Shown here: in pieces, positions 12,901-52,223 of the stretch
Numbering within the stretch: position 1 is the stretch's first letter
How the letters are laid out: each line of letters opens with the position of its first letter
DNA from: Candidatus Aenigmatarchaeota archaeon
GTDB taxonomy: Archaea; Aenigmatarchaeota; Aenigmatarchaeia; QMZP01; JAFGSV01
Assembly: GCA_016934325.1 (NCBI GenBank)
Contig: JAFGSV010000024.1
Location: 5,306-69,305, forward strand
Length of the DNA stretch: 64,000 bases
Direction of reading: 5' to 3'
Translations under genes and position numbers: made by a program
Notes under the pieces: model-generated
What the model saw: the letters and a program-made list of their open reading frames with translations, nothing else
Database searches by the model: none
Told to the model about the DNA's origin: nothing

Positions 12901-13584
12901 GGAATCCACTTGGAAATCGATAAGAGTCCTATTATCATTATTGACAGAGAATCGTGGCTCTTTGAATTTCCGTTAACTACGCTTATAAATATTCTGAACT
13001 CCAGAAAGGTCTTTTAGTGAATCTCGGACAAACCAGACTACGGCTACTTTGTCGGTCATTGGCCAACTGGATCAGATAGCCCCTTGCGGTCGTACACATT
13101 TTACATACGGACAGGCAACAGCATGAGGTAATACCACGTGAGAAACATCTCTTGGCGTTTTAGACTAAATGATCTAAGGATGTAACTAATGCGACGTAAA
13201 TAGAACACAAGATAGGCAGATAAACCATTTCTTAATTATAGTTGATTTTTCACTTGGTTTTTTCAAGAATAAATGTTATAAAATTATAGAAGGTTCAGTT
13301 TATGTGCGGCATGCGAACCTTTTGGAGTACGGCAAAATCAACGTAACGACTTTGCTACGATGTAGTTATACTTCTTGAATAGAAATTGGGCAGAAATATT
13401 TATAAAGCTTACACTGAAGGAGGTAGGATAAGAGGAGAGGCTATTGAAATGTTCGTAACATCATTGATAATAAGCTGTTATGGAAGTATGAGGCATAGAA
13501 AAATGCTCGGAGTAAAAATAAAAAGATTCAGAAAACGCACAATTAGTAACCTTTTCGTAAGGAATAAAAAATGCTCAAAAAAAT

Positions 13585-14232
13585 ATGTTAAGGGCAAACT
13601 GGGTCCTGGATCCCGGCAAATTTCTCTCCCGGGAAGAAGTAGACAGACTGCTGGAGACAGCGAGAAGAAGGGCAGAGGCGGCCTTGGCCAAAGGGCTCAA
13701 GGTGGCCGTAAGGGATTACTTTGTCGTGGACCTTGCTCTATCCACGGGATTGCGGGTGGCGGAGATTGCCAACTTGAAATGCAAGGACATATTCTTGAAC
13801 GACCGGATGTGTGCGCTTCTGGTCAGGAACGGCAAGGGCGGCAAGAAAAGGCTGGTCCGATTCAACGGATCTTTCGGGCGGCATTACGAAGAGTATGTCC
13901 TGTGGAAGCAAGCCTTCGGCGAACCTGCTGGTCCCGGCGATCCGCTGCTATTGTCCAGCAATACCGGCGGCCATATGACCACTCGGGCGATAGAGAAGGC
14001 GTTCAAGAGGACGGCCGCCAGAGCCAGCCTGCCTTCCCGTTATTCCATCCACTGTCTCAGGCACACCTATGCCTGCGAACTTTACCGGGCCAGCGGCTAC
14101 AACCTGCGTCTGGTCCAGAAGCAGCTCGGGCACGCCCACATCGCGACAACGCAGGTTTACGCGGACGTGGTGGAACCTGACATGCAACGGGCCCTGCAAA
14201 GATTATACGCCCCCCGGCAGGGGCGATTGTGA
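13585..14232 (+). CDS. Short tyrosine recombinase, catalytic domain only (FimB/FimE-like size)
   Basis: 215 aa. The catalytic residues are the Arg in LSTGLRVAEI, H-x-x-R in HCLRHTYA, then LGHAHI and the Tyr in TTQVYADV. It starts directly with KFLSREEVDRLL, so there is no N-terminal core-binding domain. Confidence 0.85.
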   Translation: MLRANWVLDPGKFLSREEVDRLLETARRRAEAALAKGLKVAVRDYFVVDLALSTGLRVAEIANLKCKDIFLNDRMCALLVRNGKGGKKRLVRFNGSFGRHYEEYVLWKQAFGEPAGPGDPLLLSSNTGGHMTTRAIEKAFKRTAARASLPSRYSIHCLRHTYACELYRASGYNLRLVQKQLGHAHIATTQVYADVVEPDMQRALQRLYAPRQGRL

Positions 14233-14263
14233 AGCTTTTAAGGCAGCAGCAATAAGAACATAA

Positions 14264-14845
14264 ATGGATGGCGACGAGCGAGGTGGAACGTCTGGTGGTT
14301 GCATGGTCTTGGCCGGGATTCTAAAGAAACTTCTGCTTGGCAGGGCTTTCACAACCGAACATGGCAGGATAAGGCTCTTCGGCATGATGGACTGGATTCT
14401 GATTCCCGCCATGGCCTTGGCGAAGGACATCCAGATGATCGGCGAGAAGAACGGAGAAGAGTTCCTGTACGAGCTCGGTTACGAAGGCGGAAAGGAAGGA
14501 GCAAACGAACTGATCAAGTACATGGGTTTAAAGCCGAGAGCGGGATGGGTGACGCAGAAGGCTATTCTCAGTCTGCTGGAATTCATCGGGTATGGAAAGC
14601 CTGAATTCCTGGTGGCCAAGGTTGGTGAAGACGGGCATCACCATCTCGTCTTTCACGTGAAGAACAATCCGGTGGTCGAGCACGCCGCCCGGATGTACGG
14701 CGCCAGGTCGAAGGTATGCTCCTGGTTCATGGGAATTTATGCGGCTCACGGGGAAATGGAACTCGGAATTCGCAATGCCCGGCTGAAGGAGAACAGGTGT
14801 ATCTGCCGGGGTTCGCCTTACTGTGAATGGGAAACGAAATGGTAA
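14264..14845 (+). CDS. V4R (4-vinyl reductase) domain protein
   Basis: The C-terminal V4R signature is VCSWFMGIYAAHGEMELG....ENRCICRGSPYCEWE (C..G..E..C..G..C). The true start may be the internal MVLAG. Confidence 0.65.
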   Translation: MDGDERGGTSGGCMVLAGILKKLLLGRAFTTEHGRIRLFGMMDWILIPAMALAKDIQMIGEKNGEEFLYELGYEGGKEGANELIKYMGLKPRAGWVTQKAILSLLEFIGYGKPEFLVAKVGEDGHHHLVFHVKNNPVVEHAARMYGARSKVCSWFMGIYAAHGEMELGIRNARLKENRCICRGSPYCEWETKW

Positions 14846-14885
14846 TCGGGAATAACTTTCTTGCTTGTTTTGGAGGGAATTTCTG

Positions 14886-16535
14886 ATGGCTCGCGGTCTG
14901 TTAATCAGCTATCCGGGATACCCTTACACACCCAGCAGCCTGCTGCCGGACAACGGGCTGGCGAATCTGGCCGGGGCACTGATTGAAGCGGGCCACGAGG
15001 TGCAGGTTCTGGATTACGGAACCGTTGACACGATGAGGCGGCTCGTTCCGCAGGGCTTACGGCGAAAGCTGTCTGAAATTTACGACCAGGTCAGCAGGGC
15101 AAGAAATGACTGTATGTCCGGGCTGAGGGGATTGTATTTGCTGTCGAGGCTTCACTTCGCGGACGGGCGGCTTGCCGGGTACCGTGCGCGGGAAGTCATG
15201 CGAATTGCAGAGGAAATAGCACAAGTAATTCAGAAGCGAAAGCCTGACTTCGTGGGATTCAAGCTGTGGAACGGTGACGGATTCAGCGGCCCTGTGATGA
15301 TAGCGGAGTTCCTGAAGAGACGGTTCCCGGAACTGAAGATATTCGCCGGCGGCCCTCACGTGGATTTTTTCCGCGGGCTTATATTTGAAAGAACGAAGGC
15401 GTTCGACGGTCTGGTCTATGGAGAGGGAGAGGAAACCATCGTTCAGATCGCTGATTGCGTTTCCGGCCTATGCAAGCTCGAATTACCGAATCTTATTACG
15501 CCGGACGGCATTGAGAGGCAGATAAAGCGGATCGGGGACCTGGACGGTCTGCCGATGCCCGTCTATGACGAGAACGTCTATCCCTCCATGAAAGGCAACG
15601 GGAAGATAAAGATAGTTGTCCTCGATGAGAGCAGGGGATGCCCCTACGGCTGTGCCTTCTGCGTTCAATCCGTAAAGAGCGGGCATGAGAGAAGGGTAAA
15701 AACGGCTGCTCGCATCGTCGGGGAAATGAAGCGAATTCGCGACCATAACGGAATAAGGTCATTCAGATACGCGGGATCAAGCACACCATCGACATTGATG
15801 AGAGAAGTTGCAATTAAAATCATGGAAGAGGACCTTAAAGTGAACTACTGCTCGTATGGGCACGTCAGGGAATTCTGTTCCGAGGATGCAAAGGCACTGA
15901 AGGAGTCCGGACTCTTCGGGCTTCTTTTCGGGATAGAGTCAGGGAGCCAGGGGGTTCTGGATTTGATGAACAAGCCCACCACAATTGAACAGATCAGAAC
16001 GGCCGTCAAGGCAGCAAAGGTTGCGGGAATATTTGTCGTCGGAAGCGTGATACTGCCTGCTCCTGGGGACGATAAAGACACCATGAACGAAACATTTGAA
16101 CTGCTGTGTGACATCCGGCCCGACTCCGTTTTCATCCAGTTTCCGGGCGTTTACCCGAGAACGCCATGGGTGGAGAATCCGGAGAAATACGGTTTTGACC
16201 TTGACGCGGAGAATTACTGCCGTCAGGTCATGGATTACAAGATCAAGACGCTTTTCCCGCCGTCGTTCTGGTCGCCCCTGCCTTACCGGCTGAACGGAAT
16301 GAGATTCAGGAAGTTTGCGAGGATTACGGAACAATTTGCCCTGAAGCTGGAGAGGAACGGCCTTGTCACGCAGCTCACCGACGACATCGCAATGGTTGGG
16401 TCCGTGCTTGGAATGGAACCGATGGGATTCAAACAGGTTACAGCAAGGGCGATGTGGACTGGGGACTGGGAGAAGATGGCTGAGGTGGTTTCGGAGTTCA
16501 ATGAGAAATCGTCATGCAAGAGTCAGAAAAAATAG
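14886..16535 (+). CDS. B12-binding-domain radical SAM enzyme (class B rSAM)
   Basis: The CX3CX2C cluster motif is GCPYGCAFC. The N-terminal Rossmann-like B12-binding region is LISYPGYPY...HEVQVLDYG...FVGFKLW. The ATG at 14886 is preceded by GGAGGG. Confidence 0.8.
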   Translation: MARGLLISYPGYPYTPSSLLPDNGLANLAGALIEAGHEVQVLDYGTVDTMRRLVPQGLRRKLSEIYDQVSRARNDCMSGLRGLYLLSRLHFADGRLAGYRAREVMRIAEEIAQVIQKRKPDFVGFKLWNGDGFSGPVMIAEFLKRRFPELKIFAGGPHVDFFRGLIFERTKAFDGLVYGEGEETIVQIADCVSGLCKLELPNLITPDGIERQIKRIGDLDGLPMPVYDENVYPSMKGNGKIKIVVLDESRGCPYGCAFCVQSVKSGHERRVKTAARIVGEMKRIRDHNGIRSFRYAGSSTPSTLMREVAIKIMEEDLKVNYCSYGHVREFCSEDAKALKESGLFGLLFGIESGSQGVLDLMNKPTTIEQIRTAVKAAKVAGIFVVGSVILPAPGDDKDTMNETFELLCDIRPDSVFIQFPGVYPRTPWVENPEKYGFDLDAENYCRQVMDYKIKTLFPPSFWSPLPYRLNGMRFRKFARITEQFALKLERNGLVTQLTDDIAMVGSVLGMEPMGFKQVTARAMWTGDWEKMAEVVSEFNEKSSCKSQKK

Positions 16536-17122
16536 TGGTCAGAAAAGCTAACGGCCATGATGAGTTGCAGGCCATCTTCCGGCTCAGGTACGAGAGCTAC
16601 CTGCGTAAGGGATACATACCTTCCAATCAGGATGGTATTATGCTCGATGAATGGGATGAATCGCCTGACACGACTCACTTCGTTGCAATGGAAAGCGGCG
16701 AACTCCTTGGAGCGGTAAGGCTTGTCCTGGACTCGATAAAAGGTTTACCTATGGAGCGGGTGTTTCCGGAAGCAATCAAGAAATTGAGAAAGCAGGGCAG
16801 AAAAGTTGCGGAGGCTTCCACCCTGGTGGTTGCAGAGGGTCCGTCCGGTTCGAGCCGGAAGCTATGGATGAAATTATGCAGGACTCTATGGATGGAGGCG
16901 GAGGCCCGGCATATTGACGACCTTTGCATTGCGGTGACACAAAATCATGTTGGCTTCTATAAAAGGCTTTTATTCGAAAACATGGGAAGGGGCAGGCACT
17001 ACAAGTCCCTGAACGGCATACTCGCTTACCCGCTGCGAGTATGTGTATCTGGTGTCAGAACCAGTCACAAGTCAGACGGAAGCAACCATGATCGATCTCT
17101 GCGCAGGCAGCTCCTGGAGTAG
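16514..17122 (+). CDS. GNAT-fold N-acyl amino acid synthase-like acyltransferase (FeeM / exosortase-associated acyltransferase type)
   Basis: The family-like N-terminus is VVRKANGHDELQAIFRLRYESYLRKGYI...LDEWDESPDTTHFVAMESGELLGAVRLVLDS. It overlaps the rSAM gene by 22 nt. Confidence 0.55.
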   Translation: MQESEKIVVRKANGHDELQAIFRLRYESYLRKGYIPSNQDGIMLDEWDESPDTTHFVAMESGELLGAVRLVLDSIKGLPMERVFPEAIKKLRKQGRKVAEASTLVVAEGPSGSSRKLWMKLCRTLWMEAEARHIDDLCIAVTQNHVGFYKRLLFENMGRGRHYKSLNGILAYPLRVCVSGVRTSHKSDGSNHDRSLRRQLLE

Positions 17123-17423: not shown

Positions 17424-20400
17424 GTGCAGATAGCTATGCTTGTGAATTTTCCGCGAATAACGAACAAAAGAATATTTAGGAGGCATTATGGCGCTAGTCA
17501 TCTCCGGGGAGAATTCTATTTGCTATATTATAAGGATTTTCCGCGTGCTGCGTACGTTGTTGATGGAGAGGATAATGAGTGTGTTAAATACTTCTCCGAT
17601 AGGAGTCAGTTTTTGTTGCCTGCGGCTTGGCTCATTGTAACACGCGACTCGGGGACAAGGGCATTCAGATATAGTAATGGTAGTTACAGAGCATGTTCTG
17701 GCAGCGTTGACTGGCACGAGGTACAAAAATCGAAACCCGTCAACCTGACGCCAAACTGTGCAAGCGTGATAATAGACCAGATTTTCAAGGATCACAAGAA
17801 TTGGCTCAGTGACCCCCTTTCTAAAGCGGCGATTGGTAGCATACCTAAGATATTTTCAGAATGCACAACGCTTGTCTATGAGTTGATTCAGAACGCGTTT
17901 GATGCCAATGCCTCACGTGTCAGGATAGAGCTTGATGAGAAGGGCCTTAGGTTCTTTCATGATGGGTACAACTTCTCGGAATCCGATGCAAAAGCGATTT
18001 CATTTGTCAATCTATCAAGTAAGGACAAAGATAAAACGGGATTCATGGGAATTGGCTTCAAATCCGTATTTGAAGCAAGCTTGAAGCCTGAAATCCATTC
18101 GGAACCGTTCTCGTTTTTATTTAATAACCGGAGCGAAGGTGGATACATCCTACCGCAGAATGTTTCACCCAAGACAGTGACACCTCCTTTCACCACTTTG
18201 ATTTACGTGCCATTCAAGGAGAAGCGTGTTTGTGACTTAATCAACAAGGAACTGACTCCTGAAGAGGAAAAAGACAACAAACTAGGTTTCTCAAGGAAGA
18301 CCTTCCTTCATCTACTCAAGGAAAAGAATGGAATATTGGCTGGCATCAGGAACGTGGAGACACCGTTTGTCAAGTTTAGGATTGTAAGGGGAAAGTTTCC
18401 AAACTCGTATCGGATTGAGGACCTCAAAGAGGAAAAGGTAATTGATAGGAAGCCATGGCTATACTTTGAAACGCGGCTTAGGCCGGAGAAAGGAGAAGTA
18501 TCTGATTTTCTCAGAGCGCGGGGCATTAAGAATGAGGAGCTTGAAGAGGAAGGATGGGACGAAATACTTTCGATTATCATTCCATTGACACAAACTAACA
18601 CAGGTTATGCTCCGGTTAAAGGTTACGCGGGTATACTTAACGTGTATCTCCCGACCACAATTAAGACTGGTTTCTCCTTTGACCTTCAGGGGAATTTCAT
18701 AATCAGTGCAGGCAGGGAGCGATTGAGATACGCCACAGGCAAATGGAACAGAGAACTGTTCTCACATGTAGGAGAATTGCTGGTAAAGATATTCGACTGG
18801 TGCAAGTCTCTGAAGGAAATTTCAGATATTGATCTTTCAGCTTTCTATTGTTTGATTCCTGATTGGAAATCAGTGGACTTCGTGGATAGAGAAATCATTG
18901 ATGATATTAGGTCCCGTTTCACTAAGTTTTTCAATTACTTGGCGATAATACCCGTTGGGTCGGAAGAATCAAAGAGGATAACGTATAGGACCGCCAAAGA
19001 TTGTGTCATGGTTGATGGTCCTGTCCTGGATCTTTTCGGTAAAAAAACTATCGAACACCTGACTGGGAAGAAAATAGTTCTGCCCAGCCTGAGCATGGAA
19101 GCGAGGGAGAAGATATCTGAGTCATGCGATGTCGATACATGGGGCGTGAACGAGACGATAAAACTCATTTCACAGAAGGATTGGTTAAAGTATTCACCTA
19201 AGTTCAAGAGTCGGCGACATTGCCACCGATGGCTATCAAAACTATATGCATATTTGAATAGTGTTCCTGTGCAGGATAGATATGACAGCGATCTTGCAAA
19301 CTTAGAGGATAGGATTCTCAATTGCTTTATATTTCCAACTGAGTGGGTAGAGGGAGAGAAACAATATAAGTATAGCCGATGTCGTGCGCCAAGAGAGAAG
19401 TTGTACAGGCTGCCAAGGGAACAGGCGGCATTACCTGTGGAAGCTTTCCTGCGAAAGATTAGCATTGTGAACCAGGGTTTTGAGGATTACATCCGGGGCA
19501 GACCTAGCAAAATGACGGATGAGGAAAAGGCGATGGCAGAGGCCAGCAGAAATTTTCTGGAGAGTATTGGTGTTCCTACTTTGGAACCGGACGTTATAGC
19601 CAAGGATTTCATCTCGCCCCTCTTCCGGAACACTTCAGCCCATAGCAAAAAGGTTCTTCTGGAATATACATCTTTCATCTGCGAGCATCTGAAAGAAGTT
19701 AAGAAAGAATCAATAGACATCCTCTTGTTGAATAAGCGAGGAGAATTTTGTATCCCCGACCAGCTATTCCTTGGTGACGCTTATGGTTTTGCTGACATAG
19801 AAGAATTCCTTGGCCGTACCAACCACGATGTCTTTGTGTCCGAACAGTATCTGAATAAGGCGTCCATAAGTACGAGCAAGTGGGTAGAATTCCTTTCGTC
19901 AGTCGGCGTCAAAAATTGGCTACCTATTAAATCAATAAAAGAAACGTTGGGGCCACACAGACTGAAGGAGAGACTGGGAGAGCATTACAAGGATTTCCAA
20001 GATATACCGCTGAGGGGGAGTTATATAAGTGCAGATTTTCCTGGTAACAGATTTCTTCTGATAGATGGTGATTTCTTAGATGTGGTAAAATGTAGACTCG
20101 AGGAGATTCGGAAGATGCCCCTCATTTCAAAAAAAGACTGCATGCGAGCATTCTTGAGAATCATTGACGCTCATTGGGAGTCAAAGTACTCAAAGAACCT
20201 GTATGTGAAGGTACTGTACTATAAAGAATATGAGCCGTACTATTCCAGTCCGCATAAAAGATTAATAAGCCTTAAAGCGAAATTTGCGGAGTATCTCATC
20301 AGGGAAAGATGGGTGCCTGCAACGAATTCCGATGACTTACGTGAGCCGAGTCAAGTTGTGGCTCAAACCGAAGAGAATATATCGCTGTCCGATGAAGGAA

Positions 20401-22361
20401 TTGTTCTGTGTGAAGAGGTTGTAAAAAACCCAGACCTTCTGGGGTTCTTAAAATTCAAGCCTATCCCTGAAAATGTCACTAGCTTGGATAGACTGGTTAA
20501 TTTGAAGACTCGCGGAAGTGAAAACCTCGATATGTACAAGAAGCTTTACAGGCTGATTGCTAAGGACGTTGAAGAAAAAAAGCTAGGTACTCAAGATGTA
20601 GTTAGAGAGTTCAGTGATAATAAGCTCATATATATAAATAATAGCTTCTGGTCACCTGAGGAAACGATCTTCAATCCACCCGCTCCTTTGCGGTTATACT
20701 ATCCAGCCGTAATTGAGACATACCCTGACATGAAGGATTTCTTCTGCAAGACACTTGGCTGTGACAATGACAATCCGTCAATCAAGAAAATCATTATGTA
20801 CTTTCTTAAATTCCTATGGGTAACAGACAGAGGCATGGATGACACGCTCAGAGCATCAGTTGTCCATTGTTACAGGAAACTGCTGGATTTCGTCGGCGAA
20901 CAGGAGAATGCAACATATAAGGAGGAGCCCCTTTGGGAGAGTTTTATAAACGATTGCAAGGTCTTCTGCAGGGATATCGGCTGGATATCCTCCCGAACAG
21001 ACAAGCCTATTGTCTTCCTTGACGTGCCAAAACACGAGGAATATTTCCATCGTTGTAAAAAGATTCGCATTGAGAGCCACCTTTCACAGCTACAGCGGGA
21101 TACTAGCGACCTTGTGCCCTTACTGGAACTCCTGAACGTAAAGCCTGCATCACAAGCAATAAAAGAAGACATTTCTTCATCCGGGGAGGGCATTCATGAG
21201 AATACCCAGCAAATCGAAGCTAATTTGAACTTCCTTGCTGAGTCTATAGTCGATGTGCTTTCGAGAAAATACATTGACTCGACCAAGAAGGAACGGACGG
21301 AACTGAAGAAATTCATCGAAAAGCTAAACGACTTCAAGAAATATCGAAAAGTTGTATACCATGTGGATCGGATTGCCTGCAAAATGTATTTGGACGGAGA
21401 AAAGCTATTTGATGTGAATAAATCTTGTCATATAGAAAAGGAAGGTGGGTTGCTTAAGATACTGGCTAGGGACGCTTTGGGCGTAATATACGGGCAATTG
21501 TCTGGTGAGCTTTGCAGTTTTTTGGGAACGGCAATTCTCCCCCGAAGCATTAAAGATGTAGTCCATCTGATGATAGACAGAACTGTTGGCAACATCGAAG
21601 GGGATTTCCGAAGAAGTATGCAAAACGTATACCGTGACATTGGCTTCGACACAACACATGATGAAAAGGCTGAAGACCTCGAGGAGGAAGAGGATGCTGA
21701 TGAGACAGAAGAAGTCGATACTGGGGAGGAACCTCAGGATTCAGAAGGCTCACAGAAGCACGAGAAGAAACCATATGATGAAGTAACAGATCCTGTCGAC
21801 TTTTCGGGAATTTCGCTGGTGACGGTCATTGGCAGTGAAACAACACAGCATGATCAAAGTGGTGGTGGCACAAGAGGGCATGTTGGCAAGAGGCATTTCA
21901 CTCCCAACCCATACTCCGAGGAAGACGGAAAAAGGGGCGAGGGGATTGTGCTCGAGAAGGAAAAGGAACGCCTCAGGAATATTGCATTGTCTGATTACGT
22001 TCAGAAAGTCGTTCATATCTCGGAAACCAAACCAGGCAATCCGTGGGACATAGAATCTTTTGACAAAAGAACAGACACTGGAGAAGTCATTCCAATAAGA
22101 ATTGAAGTGAAGGCAACCCCAGATGAACACAGCCTCGTGTTTCCGATGTCAGAGCCAGAGTTCAGAGCCGCTTTAGACACAAAGAGTCCGAAAGGTACTT
22201 ACTTCATCTACAGGGTCTTCAGCGTTAGAAGTGCAAAGCCGTCGATAAAGAGATATGAATTCTACGAACTGTTTCAAGAGAAACGAATTTCCATTAAGAA
22301 AGCGAAAGACTTCTATCTCGAGCTTCCAATAAGTGATGAAGAAAGCAGTGTAGAAGCGTGA
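17424..22361 (+). CDS. Giant GHKL-ATPase (sacsin/NO VEIN-like) protein with a C-terminal DUF3883 nuclease-like domain
   Basis: 1645 aa. The GHKL N-box is LVYELIQNAFDANASRV, the G1 motif is FHDGYNF and the G2 motif is GFMGIGFKSVFE. The C-terminus matches the DUF3883 pattern (GEGIVLEKEKERL...PWDIESF...IRIEVKAT...SEPEFRAA...YFIYRVFSV). The start is uncertain (GTG at 17424 or ATG at 17436). Confidence 0.75.
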   Translation: MQIAMLVNFPRITNKRIFRRHYGASHLRGEFYLLYYKDFPRAAYVVDGEDNECVKYFSDRSQFLLPAAWLIVTRDSGTRAFRYSNGSYRACSGSVDWHEVQKSKPVNLTPNCASVIIDQIFKDHKNWLSDPLSKAAIGSIPKIFSECTTLVYELIQNAFDANASRVRIELDEKGLRFFHDGYNFSESDAKAISFVNLSSKDKDKTGFMGIGFKSVFEASLKPEIHSEPFSFLFNNRSEGGYILPQNVSPKTVTPPFTTLIYVPFKEKRVCDLINKELTPEEEKDNKLGFSRKTFLHLLKEKNGILAGIRNVETPFVKFRIVRGKFPNSYRIEDLKEEKVIDRKPWLYFETRLRPEKGEVSDFLRARGIKNEELEEEGWDEILSIIIPLTQTNTGYAPVKGYAGILNVYLPTTIKTGFSFDLQGNFIISAGRERLRYATGKWNRELFSHVGELLVKIFDWCKSLKEISDIDLSAFYCLIPDWKSVDFVDREIIDDIRSRFTKFFNYLAIIPVGSEESKRITYRTAKDCVMVDGPVLDLFGKKTIEHLTGKKIVLPSLSMEAREKISESCDVDTWGVNETIKLISQKDWLKYSPKFKSRRHCHRWLSKLYAYLNSVPVQDRYDSDLANLEDRILNCFIFPTEWVEGEKQYKYSRCRAPREKLYRLPREQAALPVEAFLRKISIVNQGFEDYIRGRPSKMTDEEKAMAEASRNFLESIGVPTLEPDVIAKDFISPLFRNTSAHSKKVLLEYTSFICEHLKEVKKESIDILLLNKRGEFCIPDQLFLGDAYGFADIEEFLGRTNHDVFVSEQYLNKASISTSKWVEFLSSVGVKNWLPIKSIKETLGPHRLKERLGEHYKDFQDIPLRGSYISADFPGNRFLLIDGDFLDVVKCRLEEIRKMPLISKKDCMRAFLRIIDAHWESKYSKNLYVKVLYYKEYEPYYSSPHKRLISLKAKFAEYLIRERWVPATNSDDLREPSQVVAQTEENISLSDEGIVLCEEVVKNPDLLGFLKFKPIPENVTSLDRLVNLKTRGSENLDMYKKLYRLIAKDVEEKKLGTQDVVREFSDNKLIYINNSFWSPEETIFNPPAPLRLYYPAVIETYPDMKDFFCKTLGCDNDNPSIKKIIMYFLKFLWVTDRGMDDTLRASVVHCYRKLLDFVGEQENATYKEEPLWESFINDCKVFCRDIGWISSRTDKPIVFLDVPKHEEYFHRCKKIRIESHLSQLQRDTSDLVPLLELLNVKPASQAIKEDISSSGEGIHENTQQIEANLNFLAESIVDVLSRKYIDSTKKERTELKKFIEKLNDFKKYRKVVYHVDRIACKMYLDGEKLFDVNKSCHIEKEGGLLKILARDALGVIYGQLSGELCSFLGTAILPRSIKDVVHLMIDRTVGNIEGDFRRSMQNVYRDIGFDTTHDEKAEDLEEEEDADETEEVDTGEEPQDSEGSQKHEKKPYDEVTDPVDFSGISLVTVIGSETTQHDQSGGGTRGHVGKRHFTPNPYSEEDGKRGEGIVLEKEKERLRNIALSDYVQKVVHISETKPGNPWDIESFDKRTDTGEVIPIRIEVKATPDEHSLVFPMSEPEFRAALDTKSPKGTYFIYRVFSVRSAKPSIKRYEFYELFQEKRISIKKAKDFYLELPISDEESSVEA

Positions 22362-22365
22362 TGAA

Positions 22366-24414
22366 TCATAATGCTTGCTGTCTCTTTGTATGTATCACGA
22401 GAGGGTCATCAAATCCTGCTTCTCGGCACTTCTCAATATTGCCTTCAACATCCGACTTCCCCGTCTCGATTTCAATCGCTATTCTCCGTCCATCTTTTGA
22501 AGCCACAAGATCAACCGCTTTGCCGTTCCCGATAGGCACTTCCTCCTCAACCGTATAGCCTTTCCTGCGATACTGCTCCGCAACCATGTGTTTCCAGTAC
22601 TCGTGCTCAAGGCTGGCGTTCTTGGGCAGTGACTTCACTTCTATCCCTTCAAGCTTTAACAGTTCCCGGCCTTTTTCCGTGACCTTCAGCAGCGTGACAC
22701 TCCCATTAGGCACGCCGATTCTATCCTGCTTTATCAGTTCCCTTTCCAGCAACGTTTGCTTAATCTTCGTGCCGGTTCGAGCATTCCAGACGAGCCTTGT
22801 GTATCTGTCGGTCACTACGGCTAGAGGATGCTCTGCTATATCTACCAATAAATCCCACTCCATCGGTGCGATTTCAGGTATTTCGTCTTCCTTTCTGGCA
22901 GCTTCCGGAAGGGCTGAAATAGCCTCGTTCAGGGCCAACTGAAGTTCTTGCACCCCCCGCTTGACGGAATCGCTTCCGGAATGTCTTATTTCTGTCTTGG
23001 ACGCCTGGAAATTGCTCACTACTGGAAACAGAGGGAAACGAACGAGGAACGGCTTCACCCACCTGTCCTGCATCTTGACTATTCCCTGCCCGACCGGCAG
23101 CCTGCCGATGTGGTCCCATTCCTCACGTGGAAGTGTCAACGACTTTCCGGCTGCCGCCACGTCGTTTGCGTGCTTTAGGTTCAGGCAGATCGTAACTCCG
23201 GTGTTGCCCAGGGCGGGCGTTGTCAGAAGACTCGGATTCTGGTCCAGGAGAACGATAGCCTCACCGAGATCTCTCATCTGCCTGAGGATGAAATCGTGCA
23301 TCGATTGCCCTACCGTATGACGGCGGAGAAACAGGTTATGAGCCTCCTCGACAATCAGAGCATGCTTGAAGGCTCTCGATTTTCCTTCCGAAAGCCGGTG
23401 ATAGTAAAGCCACAGAAGGAACGCCTGGCTGAACAGGCTCCTGTCGGTTTCGCTGCCGAGGCCGGAAAGCTCCAGGATAACGGGTCGGTCAAGGAGGTCC
23501 TGAAGCCTTGCATTGGAAGAGGAGTTTATGATCCTGCCTATAGGGCCAGTGGTCAGCTTGAAAAGGGTGTTGAGGGCCGAAGCCTTCCAATCCCGTTCCC
23601 GCGAATCCGCTCCGTAGGACTCGATGCGGTTCCTGACGTCGTTGAAGGTTATCGGTTTTGCCCTGTCCCCCATCATGGAGCTGAGGGATTTGAGGAGAAA
23701 ATATTCAACGCCCCTCGTGCTCAATAGCTGGTTCCCCGGCAGGTAGGTTGAGCAGACCACTGACGTGATGTCGCGCAGGTAGGCTTCCGCCTGGTTGTAG
23801 GTAAGATTGGGCGGCGGGTCAAGCGGATTGAAGGATAGCGATCCCGGCTCGCCAGGGGCGAATGTGAGAACCGTCCGTGCCCCGTTTCCGTGCTTCAGAC
23901 ACTTGTAATTGCCCCGCCAGTCAAGGACGGTGAACGGCTTGCCTTTTCTCAACAGGTTTGATACGAGCAGGTAACCGACGTTGGTCTTGCCCGCCCCGGA
24001 ACGTCCGAGTATTGCCACGTGCTGCGGAAGGTCGGTCTCTCGCAGGCCGAAAGGATGCAATGATTTATCTGCGTAAATCACGGTTCCGAGCGGATACCCG
24101 CCTTCGGCCTTTTCTCGCGGCGGCGGCTCAAGCAGGATGTGCCTTCCCGCGTAGCTCTCGTCCAGCAGCTCGGCTGCCAGTGCACTGGCCACGGCATGGA
24201 TGTCCCTCTGCCGGTCCGGATCAAGCAGGGTGGTGAGCCAGAAGGCGTCCGCCATGTCACCGATGACGGGACGGAGCTTCGCCAGCAGGGATTTGAATTC
24301 CTCATGGTACACGTGAATCACCTTGAACCTCAACGTTACTGGCTGACCTATTCGTTCCGTCAAGGGCGTCGATTTCGCGTTGGAGCTTCCTGATTTCGCC
24401 CCTGAGCCAGACAA
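22366..24414 (-). CDS. HerA/FtsK-superfamily (DUF87-like) ATPase fused to a winged-helix and a PD-(D/E)xK-like C-terminal module
   Basis: Walker A is ILGRSGAGKTNVG and Walker B is ALIVEEAHNLF. An FNPLDPP motif is present. The C-terminus has a wHTH-like segment, then KAVDLVASKDGRRIAIEIETGKS. The true start is probably downstream of 24414 (GTG near 24320 or MADAFW), because the long ORF overlaps the upstream gene. Confidence 0.7.
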   Translation of the reverse strand: MSGSGAKSGSSNAKSTPLTERIGQPVTLRFKVIHVYHEEFKSLLAKLRPVIGDMADAFWLTTLLDPDRQRDIHAVASALAAELLDESYAGRHILLEPPPREKAEGGYPLGTVIYADKSLHPFGLRETDLPQHVAILGRSGAGKTNVGYLLVSNLLRKGKPFTVLDWRGNYKCLKHGNGARTVLTFAPGEPGSLSFNPLDPPPNLTYNQAEAYLRDITSVVCSTYLPGNQLLSTRGVEYFLLKSLSSMMGDRAKPITFNDVRNRIESYGADSRERDWKASALNTLFKLTTGPIGRIINSSSNARLQDLLDRPVILELSGLGSETDRSLFSQAFLLWLYYHRLSEGKSRAFKHALIVEEAHNLFLRRHTVGQSMHDFILRQMRDLGEAIVLLDQNPSLLTTPALGNTGVTICLNLKHANDVAAAGKSLTLPREEWDHIGRLPVGQGIVKMQDRWVKPFLVRFPLFPVVSNFQASKTEIRHSGSDSVKRGVQELQLALNEAISALPEAARKEDEIPEIAPMEWDLLVDIAEHPLAVVTDRYTRLVWNARTGTKIKQTLLERELIKQDRIGVPNGSVTLLKVTEKGRELLKLEGIEVKSLPKNASLEHEYWKHMVAEQYRRKGYTVEEEVPIGNGKAVDLVASKDGRRIAIEIETGKSDVEGNIEKCREAGFDDPLVIHTKRQQAL

Positions 24415-24919
24415 GGTCCCGCCAGCTTGTCAGGGCCTCCCGTCTCCGCTGGCGCTTAAGCTCGAACAGCCTGCGTTCGAGGTCGCGCCGCCGCTCCGTG
24501 TTGTTCATTGCGGCCTTCAGTGCAGAAAGGGATACCTCGCACTCCCGTATCTCAGGATCAAGCTCTTTCAGGGCGTATTGAGCCAGTTGCTCCCTGTCCC
24601 TCTTCGCTCCTTCGAGTTCATCGAGCGCCCTTTGCAGGAAGTCGAGCCGGTCTGCGAAAAGGGATTGCAGAAGACGGAGAGGACGGAGGTGGCTTTCATC
24701 GTTGGAGGGTAGCGATTCCGGCGATGACCGGCCCGGAAAATCGGGGTCGCTTATGAGTTCGTGAAAATCCTGCATGGAAGCGTTCTTGCCATTGGGTGTG
24801 CTTGAACGGGAATCAGCCGGATTTTCGGACGAGTATGTCCCTTCTTTCAGATCCCAGGTTGTCGGGTATGGCACGTATTTCGGATAAATCTCCCCCACGA
24901 CGTTTTTCCGGCCACGCAT
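24302..24919 (-). CDS. Coiled-coil protein (hypothetical), upstream partner of the HerA-like ATPase
   Basis: 205 aa. The C-terminal half is heptad-like and charged (LDELEGAKRDREQLAQYALKELD...RRLFELKRQRRREALTSWRDLVWLRGEIRKLQREIDAL). It is on the same strand as the ATPase gene and abuts it. Confidence 0.5.
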   Translation of the reverse strand: MRGRKNVVGEIYPKYVPYPTTWDLKEGTYSSENPADSRSSTPNGKNASMQDFHELISDPDFPGRSSPESLPSNDESHLRPLRLLQSLFADRLDFLQRALDELEGAKRDREQLAQYALKELDPEIRECEVSLSALKAAMNNTERRRDLERRLFELKRQRRREALTSWRDLVWLRGEIRKLQREIDALDGTNRSASNVEVQGDSRVP

Positions 24920-52078: not shown

Positions 52079-52092
52079 ATGCCTCGGGCGGG
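52079..52092. repeat. tRNA-proximal copy of the 14-bp att-like repeat ATGCCTCGGGCGGG
   Basis: It covers the discriminator base, the 3' acceptor strand and part of the T-stem of the tRNA. It is identical to 6070-6083. Confidence 0.55.
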
Positions 52093-52223
52093 ATTTGAAC
52101 CCACGACCTCCGCGTATCCCATTTAGATCATCGAAAACTCTCGTTTTCTCAGCGCTCACAAAGACACGCTTATGAGCTTCGCCCATTATTTGTGCGGCGC
52201 TCTAACCACTGAGCCACCGAGGC
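52080..52223 (-). tRNA. tRNA with anticodon CAU (elongator Met or Ile2 type) interrupted by two putative introns
   Basis: The reverse strand reads GCCTCGG-TG-GCTC-AGTGGTTA-GAGC-G-CCGC [16 nt] GCTCATA [55 nt] A-CGCGG-AGGTC-GTGGG-TTCAAAT-CCCGC-CCGAGGC-A. Removing both inserts gives a 73-nt cloverleaf. Its anticodon stem is CCGCG/CGCGG and its loop is CUCAUAA. No CCA is encoded. Confidence 0.7.

Follow-up and report, generated by a model that had tools for sequence, protein, structure and literature searches.

In C. difficile, the cwpV gene is switched by a tyrosine recombinase, RecV, which inverts a 195-bp region located between the promoter and the open reading frame (ORF), and a terminator is found in the OFF transcript (Emerson et al. 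2009, PMC2784873). This is the closest described analogue of the system examined here, which is found in a stretch of 64,000 nucleotides from a Candidatus Aenigmatarchaeota archaeon (hereafter the window; all positions refer to it). In the window, a non-coding leader and a short tyrosine recombinase gene are followed by three genes (14264-17122), which encode a protein of predicted V4R fold, a B12-binding radical S-adenosylmethionine (rSAM) enzyme, and an N-acyltransferase of the FeeM family. We read the locus, with modest confidence, as a conserved gene set that makes and binds a modified fatty-acyl compound and that stands behind a DNA-inversion leader switch, held here in its rare orientation.

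As in cwpV, the invertible segment is short (195 bp in cwpV and 233 bp here), holds neither promoter nor coding region, and would be inverted by a tyrosine recombinase. In both systems a leader terminator is proposed in one orientation, and one state is in the minority: about 5% of cells are ON for cwpV, and here a single locus out of about 26 has the alternative orientation. The two systems differ in other respects. Here the recombinase is encoded directly downstream of the switch, by which it would be co-regulated, and it has the catalytic domain only. The recombination site itself is predicted to form the terminator hairpin, and the switch as a whole is a prediction from sequence. While the cwpV switch controls a cell-wall protein, the cargo here is a small-molecule module, and the hosts are uncultured Planctomycetota-type bacteria and, in the case of the window, apparently an archaeon. 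Another described system is fimS of E. coli, in which FimB and FimE, recombinases of about 200 amino acids (aa) without a core-binding domain, similarly stand beside a short (~300 bp) invertible element. In fimS the promoter is part of the element and the inverted repeats are 9 bp long, while here the promoter lies outside the segment and the sites are 34-bp arm-spacer-arm cores. The window recombinase is also closer in sequence to Xer-type recombinases than to FimB/FimE.

For the genes behind the recombinase, the closest described counterparts are FeeM, known from environmental DNA (structure 2G0B); MgmA (structure 9CCB), a B12-binding rSAM enzyme that C-methylates a glutamine of methyl-coenzyme M reductase (MCR); BchE and BchJ, a B12-binding rSAM enzyme and a V4R-type protein in one pathway, that of bacteriochlorophyll; and the V4R-scaffold sensor (A) domains of DmpR, MopR, and PoxR. 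The fee cluster of FeeM includes its own acyl carrier protein (ACP).

Recombinase and proposed invertible leader

The features of the leader and the recombinase gene are as follows.

13254-13282, plus strand: degenerate counterpart of a sigma-70-type promoter (TTGGTT-17-TATAAA, 8/12), which aligns with TTGACA-16/17-TATAAT of other loci
13289-13322, plus strand: core site 1, GAAGGTTCAGTTTA / TGTGCG / GCATGCGAACCTTT, with its spacer at 13303-13308
13309-13535, no strand assigned: leader segment of 227 bp that separates the two spacers, predicted to be invertible and found here in the rare orientation B
13522-13555, plus strand: core site 2, AAAGATTCAGAAAA / CGCACA / ATTAGTAACCTTTT, with its spacer at 13536-13541, ending 30 nt before the recombinase ATG
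13585-14232, plus strand: tyrosine recombinase, 215 aa, catalytic domain only (PF00589), predicted invertase
14235-14264, plus strand: intergenic motif CTTTTAAGGCA-N5-8-ACAAATACATAAA, between the recombinase stop and the ribosome-binding site of the V4R gene, from a 19-locus alignment and a motif scan

The recombinase matches PF00589 with 107.9 bits over profile positions 1-168 of 172, and its R, K, HxxR, H, and Y motifs are readable. Xer models align with it only from about model position 100 on, which shows that the core-binding domain is missing. Matches to the FimB/FimE-type invertase models NF007370 and NF007371 are weak. Database clusters with 68% or more identity to this protein number more than 120. 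A large ORF in a different frame (13386-14180), not itself searched, was judged spurious on account of its overlap with the Pfam-matched recombinase frame.

The two core sites were found by aligning the non-coding tract of about 600 bp 5' of the recombinase gene across loci. Each is 34 bp long, with a 6-bp spacer flanked by inverted arms of 14 bp, whose consensus (AAAGGTTCAGnnTT) occurs in more than 25 loci. The sites are inverted relative to each other, 233 bp apart, and just 5' of the recombinase start. No other convincing recombination site occurs in the 64-kb window, and none flanks the cargo genes; the three weaker single matches there do not exceed the number expected from shuffling (0-3). 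By a scripted search, a site pair with zero spacer mismatches is found in 23 loci and in five more, giving 24 distinct loci after identical copies are dropped. In these scripted loci the distance from the end of site 2 to the ATG is 30-34 nt, except for one row of 50 whose ATG was taken from the gene call. In all 24 distinct loci, the second spacer reads exactly as the first does in reverse complement, even though nine different spacers occur (TGTGCG, TGTGAG, TGTGCA, GATGCG, GATGGG, GGTGTG, GGTGCG, CCTACG, and CTTACG). A tenth, diverged pair (CTCACG/CGTGAG) was read by eye in L036. Since the spacers vary between loci yet match within each locus, they bear the signature of functional tyrosine-recombinase sites in inverted orientation. 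This spacer covariation documents site use by a tyrosine recombinase that has a catalytic domain only.

The orientation of the segment is reversed in the window. Global alignment of its segment with that of L013 scores -6.5 forward and +49.5 reverse, while all 22 other loci compared, and likewise four more, score better forward against L013. The window is the sole locus scored with the segment inverted (orientation B), against about 25 loci in orientation A. When re-flipped in silico, its segment aligns column by column with the other 19. The inner arm and flank of site 1 are the reverse complement of the inner arm of site 2 in other loci, and the break points of the inversion fall at the spacers. 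An independent Logan contig of the source run has 0 differences from the window across both sites and the same orientation. In Logan contigs of relatives (runs X2 and X4), position 13309 is joined to 13536 on opposite strands, with 6 shared letters. The orientation in the window is not an assembly artefact. Both orientations occur in nature, as a comparison between loci and not between cells of one population.

Other loci have a promoter directly in front of the switch. Among 21 distinct loci, 17 have a sigma-70-type promoter with a score of 10/12 or better (several 12/12) within 50 bp 5' of site 1; 0.6% of shuffled 50-mers score as high. This promoter is a consensus match only, and its -10 element ends 6-19 nt before site 1 in relatives. 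Site 1 in orientation A folds into a near-perfect 12-16-bp hairpin of -9 to -20 kcal/mol with a T-rich tail. Flipped in silico, the site gives -2 to -11 kcal/mol and the tail becomes TTTTGG or TTTAAG. A terminator scan calls site 1 in L003. A promoter inside the segment, as in fimS, was considered and rejected: the only conserved internal element is TAAGCTTTATAAAT, the sigma-70 matches around it are weak and inconsistent, and the strong promoter is outside. The TAAGCTTTATAAAT box, which resembles an archaeal TATA element, is found together with a conserved small hairpin (CGTAAC...GTTACG) at 13342-13359 of the window and at the equivalent place elsewhere.

These features suggest the following mechanism. 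The recombinase would recognise both core sites, and strand exchange in the spacers would flip the leader between the promoter and the ribosome-binding site of the recombinase. In orientation A, the site 1 hairpin and its T-tract would act as an intrinsic terminator a few bases past the transcription start, leaving the operon OFF. In orientation B, that of the window, the hairpin would be weakened and the T-tract replaced, allowing read-through into the recombinase, V4R, rSAM, and FeeM genes (ON). The ON state would raise the recombinase level and favour return to OFF. The predominance of orientation A (about 25 loci against one in B) may be explained in this manner, because a recombinase encoded downstream of the switch would drive ON back to OFF. 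The intergenic motif following the recombinase is more conserved than its surroundings and recurs at this place in 18 other loci; possible roles are those of a promoter, operator, or RNA element.

The switch is also found with other cargo. Six distinct loci were sampled from the recombinase side, and all of them have the promoter and the switch in orientation A. Three of the six (L094, L096, and L102) have a V4R gene and a Methyltransf_20 gene as cargo. The other three have genes unrelated to V4R behind promoter, switch, and recombinase: L098 has a response regulator and sensor-kinase fragments, L099 has unknown proteins of 69 and 423 aa, and L101 has an unknown protein of 332 aa together with a TPR protein. 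From this gene content the switch is predicted to be a portable regulatory module, of which V4R modules are the commonest cargo in the six-locus sample. It suggests that promoter, switch, and recombinase form a general phase-variation device in these bacteria. That the V4R protein is an obligatory partner or directionality factor of the recombinase is unlikely, as three of the six loci have the switch without a V4R gene. The constant presence of the recombinase is explained by this arrangement, which adds a well-defined family of inversion switches whose terminator is built into the site and which encode a minimal invertase of their own, in environmental Planctomycetota-type genomes. Few cases of phase variation are known from such genomes.

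The three cargo genes

The preliminary description of this DNA, made from the sequence alone, reported three consecutive plus-strand genes with 19-40-nt gaps or overlaps. The ORFs are found as described:

14303-14845, plus strand: gene for the predicted V4R-fold protein, 180 aa, stand-alone (ORF 14264-14845)
14886-16535, plus strand: gene for a 549-aa class B rSAM enzyme (ORF 14865-16535)
16514-17122, plus strand: FeeM-family gene, 202-aa N-acyltransferase of the N-acyl amino acid synthase type

The likely start of the first gene (ATG at 14303) is set by 180-aa relatives opening with MxLAGILKK. That of the second (ATG at 14886) gives a length of 549 aa in agreement with the database clusters. 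The third also starts with ATG, with an N-terminus kept in relatives, and it overlaps the rSAM gene by 22 nt.

The product of the third gene had been described as a GNAT-fold protein resembling N-acyl amino acid synthases. It is a firm relative of FeeM and not an ordinary acetyltransferase: it matches PF21926 with 133.6 bits (cut-off 27; E 7e-39) over profile positions 1-156 of 158, and it matches the FeeM crystal structure 2G0B directly (E 1.2e-10). R96, E100, and S102 are invariant in close and deep relatives. E100 is aligned with a glutamate of FeeM, the one in its segment KKLAEV, and the GLPME motif is also present. From family membership, N-acylation of an amino acid is predicted for this enzyme. 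Unlike the fee cluster, the window has no ACP gene, and the partners are a B12-binding rSAM enzyme and a V4R protein.

The rSAM enzyme was correctly assigned to class B with an N-terminal B12-binding region. PF02310 (B12-binding) gives 52.9 bits (cut-off 32.1) at residues 110-195, PF04055 (Radical_SAM) gives 66.4 bits (cut-off 29.5) at residues 256-414, and GCPYGCAFC provides the CX3CX2C cluster motif. All 25 curated models listed are far under their cut-offs, including those of the ladderane rSAM enzyme, MgmA, BzaD, and HpnR. The scores are 113.8 of the required 750 bits for ApyD, which is the best, 99 of 600 for PhpK, 93 of 578 for HpnJ, 81.5 of 481.35 for BchE (TIGR02026), and 81 of 360 for the MgmA-type model TIGR04014. 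By sequence, the closest structure is that of MgmA (9CCB, E 5e-12). The two share the two-domain class B architecture; they differ in that similarity is low and MCR is absent here, hence another substrate is expected. The enzyme is thus assigned, on model scores, to a subfamily of B12-binding rSAM enzymes without a named equivalog or a characterised close relative. The preliminary description had also drawn a parallel with BchJ and BchE. It fails as a statement of membership: the BchE equivalog cut-off is far from reached, no tetrapyrrole genes are near the trio, and the V4R protein resembles DmpR-type ligand sensors.

Relatives of the rSAM enzyme form two shells: the inner one consists of about 17 proteins with 71-85% identity, and the outer one, with 43-48%, is a very large family. 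Seven loci with relatives at 43-46% identity (L006-L012) have no V4R, FeeM, or recombinase gene nearby. Their rSAM genes are found next to those of FabF/FabB-type ketoacyl synthases, histidine kinases (HisKA_7TM, GAF, and PAS), and response regulators. This cluster is conserved and apparently undescribed, and it occurs in metagenome-assembled genomes (MAGs) labelled Omnitrophota, Chlamydiota, Nanoarchaeota, and others. In the rSAM tree, members linked to ketoacyl synthase and HisKA_7TM genes are interspersed among those linked to V4R and FeeM genes.

The first gene had been called a V4R domain protein with a C..G..E..C..G..C signature at its C-terminus. The fold and the signature stand, while a match to the Pfam V4R family (PF02830) is not obtained: Pfam searches at E <= 10 with the 193-aa and 180-aa forms give zero matches. 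Among 92 relatives, a single precomputed Pfam domain is on record, an unrelated PF01751 entry. Searches of PDB chains by phmmer and with a profile built from 48 relatives (hmmsearch) give spurious helical-repeat matches and no V4R chain. The AlphaFold model built from the family alignment has a pLDDT of 89.2 and a pTM of 0.84. By Foldseek, it matches the V4R-scaffold sensor domains of PoxR, MopR, and DmpR (E 4e-7 to 1e-5, TM ~0.65), as well as Bet3/TRAPPC3, with palmitate-bound Bet3 chains among the matches, and the V4R protein MJ_1460 (2OSD and 2OSO, E 6e-4). Several relatives carry the JGI name "predicted hydrocarbon binding protein".

The residues of the signature (C139, G144, E163, C166, G170, and C174) are invariant across the 48 relatives. 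In DmpR, zinc is held by Cys151, Glu172, Cys177, and Cys185 (PMC7264223). The invariant Cys-Glu-Cys-Cys set may correspond to these ligands, an equivalence drawn by analogy. DmpR, MopR, and PoxR are the best fold matches of the protein. They differ in that the domain is stand-alone here, lacks an AAA+ or DNA-binding domain, and matches neither Pfam V4R nor these chains at the level of sequence. The V4R-fold protein is predicted to bind a small hydrophobic ligand, as a carrier or sensor. A scan of viral contigs with this family found nothing.

Recurrence of the trio and partners of V4R

V4R, rSAM, and FeeM genes occur together in eight close loci with unrelated flanks, and in L035, where the contig ends inside the rSAM gene and the order is the same up to that point. 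The close loci are L001, L002, L003-5, L013, L032, L036, and L037. All close rSAM relatives with readable context have the same order: short recombinase, 180-aa protein, rSAM, and FeeM. The trio is also found in three deep loci, in which the rSAM enzyme is 42-46% identical to that of the window and the FeeM genes match PF21926 (E 5e-11, 3e-9, and 1.5e-20):

L070: winged helix-turn-helix (wHTH), V4R, rSAM, FeeM
L087: recombinase, V4R, rSAM, FeeM
L089: FeeM, V4R, rSAM

Co-conservation, which was proposed as a check together with the grouping of the third protein, is therefore seen in close and deep loci alike, and that protein does not fall among ordinary acetyltransferases. From this recurrence, V4R, rSAM, and FeeM are predicted to be a functional unit. 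The earlier view of a compact small-molecule trio is kept as far as the small-molecule module is concerned. The trio is not the basic unit, as V4R is the constant part.

This is seen in a wider survey. Searching the contigs of one genome per species, and metagenome contigs, for the V4R family yielded 81 loci, and a tblastn census gave 62 distinct V4R proteins. V4R is followed by Methyltransf_20 in 34 of the 62 distinct loci. By gene order they are divided as follows:

recombinase, V4R, Methyltransf_20 (PF12147): 22 distinct loci
small wHTH gene, V4R, Methyltransf_20: 12 distinct loci
recombinase, V4R, rSAM: 7 distinct loci and one at a contig edge
wHTH or second V4R copy, V4R, FAM11 (370-410 aa): 4 distinct loci
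wHTH, V4R, KASIII-like: 1 distinct locus
wHTH, V4R, rSAM: 1 distinct locus
FeeM, V4R, rSAM: 1 distinct locus
other V4R loci: 13, being contig-edge, tandem-copy, or unclassified; in four of the edge loci Methyltransf_20 also comes after V4R

FAM11 is a distant FeeM-like family by profile comparison (hhalign 77%, E 2e-5). Its members (in L023, L025, L027, and L030) are without a Pfam or NCBIfam match, and their N-terminal half aligns with FeeM, the GhP(L/M)ENR motif included. Two tandem V4R genes often precede FAM11.

The wHTH and recombinase types are found in different genomes. Loci of the wHTH type are from MAGs labelled Aenigmatarchaeota, Micrarchaeota, and "uncultured archaeon", and they adjoin KaiC-like and polyprenyl-synthase genes. 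Loci of the recombinase type are from MAGs labelled Phycisphaerae, Pirellulales, and Sedimentisphaerales, and their flanks include a planctomycete-type extracytoplasmic function (ECF) sigma factor, GH16/GH98 enzymes, and YD-shell proteins. In nine DPANN loci (L018, L021, L027, L068, L070, L074, L076, L078, and L079), repeats are present upstream of the 83-aa wHTH gene. They are of the type TTTTCAC(T/A)nnAGTTAC and flank a TATA box (ATTTATTTAAA) about 25 nt 5' of the ATG. Judging from these elements, the wHTH-V4R-enzyme set appears to have a leaderless archaeal promoter that is autoregulated and has operator sites.

In the V4R tree, the recombinase-rSAM type (support 100/99) and the recombinase-methyltransferase type (100/97) are separate clades, nested among the archaeal wHTH types. 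The partner label switches far less than under label shuffling. Since the label rarely changes on the tree, exchange of the enzyme appears rare and V4R appears to have co-diversified with its partner. V4R is the constant member, next to which the enzyme appears to have been swapped a few times: Methyltransf_20, a KASIII-like enzyme, a distant FeeM-like enzyme, or rSAM with FeeM. The pairing of V4R with interchangeable enzymes in DPANN archaea and bacteria suggests a general ligand-handling role of stand-alone V4R proteins.

A fatty-acyl substrate is proposed because all identified partners, except the methyltransferase, are acyl-chain enzymes. The FeeM-type enzyme would move a fatty acyl group from acyl-ACP or acyl-coenzyme A (CoA) to an amine, most likely an amino acid. 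The B12-binding rSAM enzyme would modify an unactivated carbon of the N-acyl lipid or of an acyl precursor, most likely by C-methylation. The V4R protein would bind the hydrophobic substrate or product, as a carrier or sensor. The preliminary description could not match the combination to a described pathway, and none is found in the literature searched; in the same literature the gene combination, the switch family, and the spacer covariation were not found described. A conserved, undescribed module of V4R binder, class B rSAM enzyme, and FeeM-type enzyme offers a route to new lipid chemistry of B12-binding rSAM enzymes, whose family here is large and uncharacterised.

A bolder scenario may be proposed, which as a whole we hold to be rather unlikely. 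V4R-enzyme pairs would be self-contained lipid-signal modules, with an acyl-derived messenger made by the enzyme and bound by V4R, that were born beside a small autoregulatory wHTH gene in DPANN archaea and captured by bacteria behind a self-limiting switch. The rSAM-FeeM version would make a new C-methylated N-acyl amide, and the window would hold a bacterial-type copy, in the ON state, in an archaeon. If this is true, only a small, transient subpopulation produces the signal, and a phase-variable chemical signal system has been exchanged between domains.

Other readings and the genomic setting

Several points weigh against a fatty-acyl module behind a leader switch. The promoter in the window itself reaches only 8/12 of the sigma-70 consensus, in an apparently archaeal host. 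Since the host is apparently archaeal and the promoter degenerate, the switch in the window may be frozen or read differently. The ON/OFF polarity is predicted from folding energies and consensus motifs, and no RNA of the locus was found in the metatranscriptome of the study that provided the source run. The source run shows orientation B only, and four salt-marsh runs with the related locus L014 show orientation A only, at 3-7x depth (assembled contigs in both cases). If the intergenic motif is an independent promoter, only the recombinase would be under control of the switch. On the side of the cargo, the V4R identity of the first gene comes from its modelled fold alone, and the putative product, acyl donor, and acceptor are drawn from families and context. 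A lipid substrate is likewise a matter of inference for the rSAM enzyme, whose best partial matches are enzymes that methylate proteins or peptides made by the ribosome and modified after translation (RiPPs).

The last point leads to an alternative, which we regard as improbable, in which the enzymes act on a peptide or protein: a peptide, or V4R itself, would be C-methylated by the B12-binding rSAM enzyme and acylated by the GNAT-fold enzyme. The models that match the rSAM enzyme best, if partially, are indeed those of the RiPP enzyme ApyD and of a RiPP C-methyltransferase, and the nearest structure, MgmA, is a protein glutamine C-methylase. V4R is constant while the enzymes change, and its eukaryotic relative Bet3, among the fold matches, was crystallised with covalent palmitate. 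However, these model scores are far under the cut-offs, and the gaps of 19-40 nt or overlaps leave no room for a conserved precursor ORF. FeeM membership is strong, the characterised member makes N-acyl amino acids, and rSAM relatives pair with ketoacyl synthases.

It is about equally improbable that V4R and the enzyme form a conflict module against phages or other elements, in which the enzyme makes a diffusible messenger, V4R senses it, and phase variation limits the cost. Immune systems composed of a V4R sensor and an enzyme are predicted in a 2026 preprint (bioRxiv 10.64898/2026.10.19.760177), which favours this idea. The neighbours also do: GHKL-DUF3883 and HerA-like ATPase genes in the window, and AIPR (L013), Mrr_cat, AbiEii, TIR, and OLD/UvrD in relatives. 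Note that these defence neighbours vary, however, and may merely mark an island hot spot. The V4R protein has no fused effector domain and none that accompanies it constantly, and the archaeal wHTH-V4R-enzyme versions are among housekeeping-type genes (KaiC-like, polyprenyl synthase, and pilus).

Quite unlikely is the view, close to that of the preliminary description, in which the trio was carried on a mobile element behind its recombinase: the recombinase would be an integrase that mobilises the trio as a cassette, and the order recombinase-V4R-enzyme would reflect co-mobility and not regulation. The best-scoring models for the recombinase are of the Xer and integron-integrase type, the island has mosaic GC content and adjoins a tRNA gene, and the enzyme after V4R varies between loci as cassettes do. 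However, convincing sites number just two; they lie 233 bp from each other in inverted orientation, both 5' of the recombinase gene, so that they bracket no gene. By the V4R tree, the enzyme was swapped only a few times and long ago. Compared with relatives, the window has precisely the leader segment inverted. Together with the absence of a core-binding domain, the sole inverted sites in the leader and the flipped segment indicate an invertase of a leader switch and not a cassette integrase.

A tetrapyrrole-type pathway can practically be set aside: V4R and a B12-binding rSAM enzyme co-occur, as do BchJ and BchE, and the BchE model matches partly, but it gives 81.5 against 481 bits with other models higher, other tetrapyrrole genes are absent from the loci examined, and V4R pairs equally with methyltransferases and acyl enzymes.

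With the fatty-acyl module and its leader switch remaining the favoured reading, the surroundings of the locus may be described. The host of the window appears archaeal from a tRNA intron at 37/38 and from Orc1/Cdc6, whose gene is within the island. The tRNA gene (52080-52223, minus strand) has a 71-nt intron and is found by Rfam, and by ARAGORN only in intron mode. A scan of the window at the Rfam gathering thresholds gave nothing but this tRNA. It sits at a shift in GC content between the island and ThiC/ThyX/SHMT-type genes, and therefore probably marks the integration site of the island.

Downstream of the cassette (17424-24919), genes for a HerA-like DUF87 ATPase and a coiled-coil partner are arranged convergently. 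This ATPase with its coiled-coil partner recurs downstream, on the strand opposite to the cassette, in L013, L014, L028, L036, L038, L094, L096, and L102. The region behaves as an island hot spot. The genes between cassette and ATPase are variable and of defence type; they encode a GHKL/sacsin-DUF3883 protein in the window and L102, an AIPR protein in L013, and, in L094 and L096, an unknown protein of 1281 aa.

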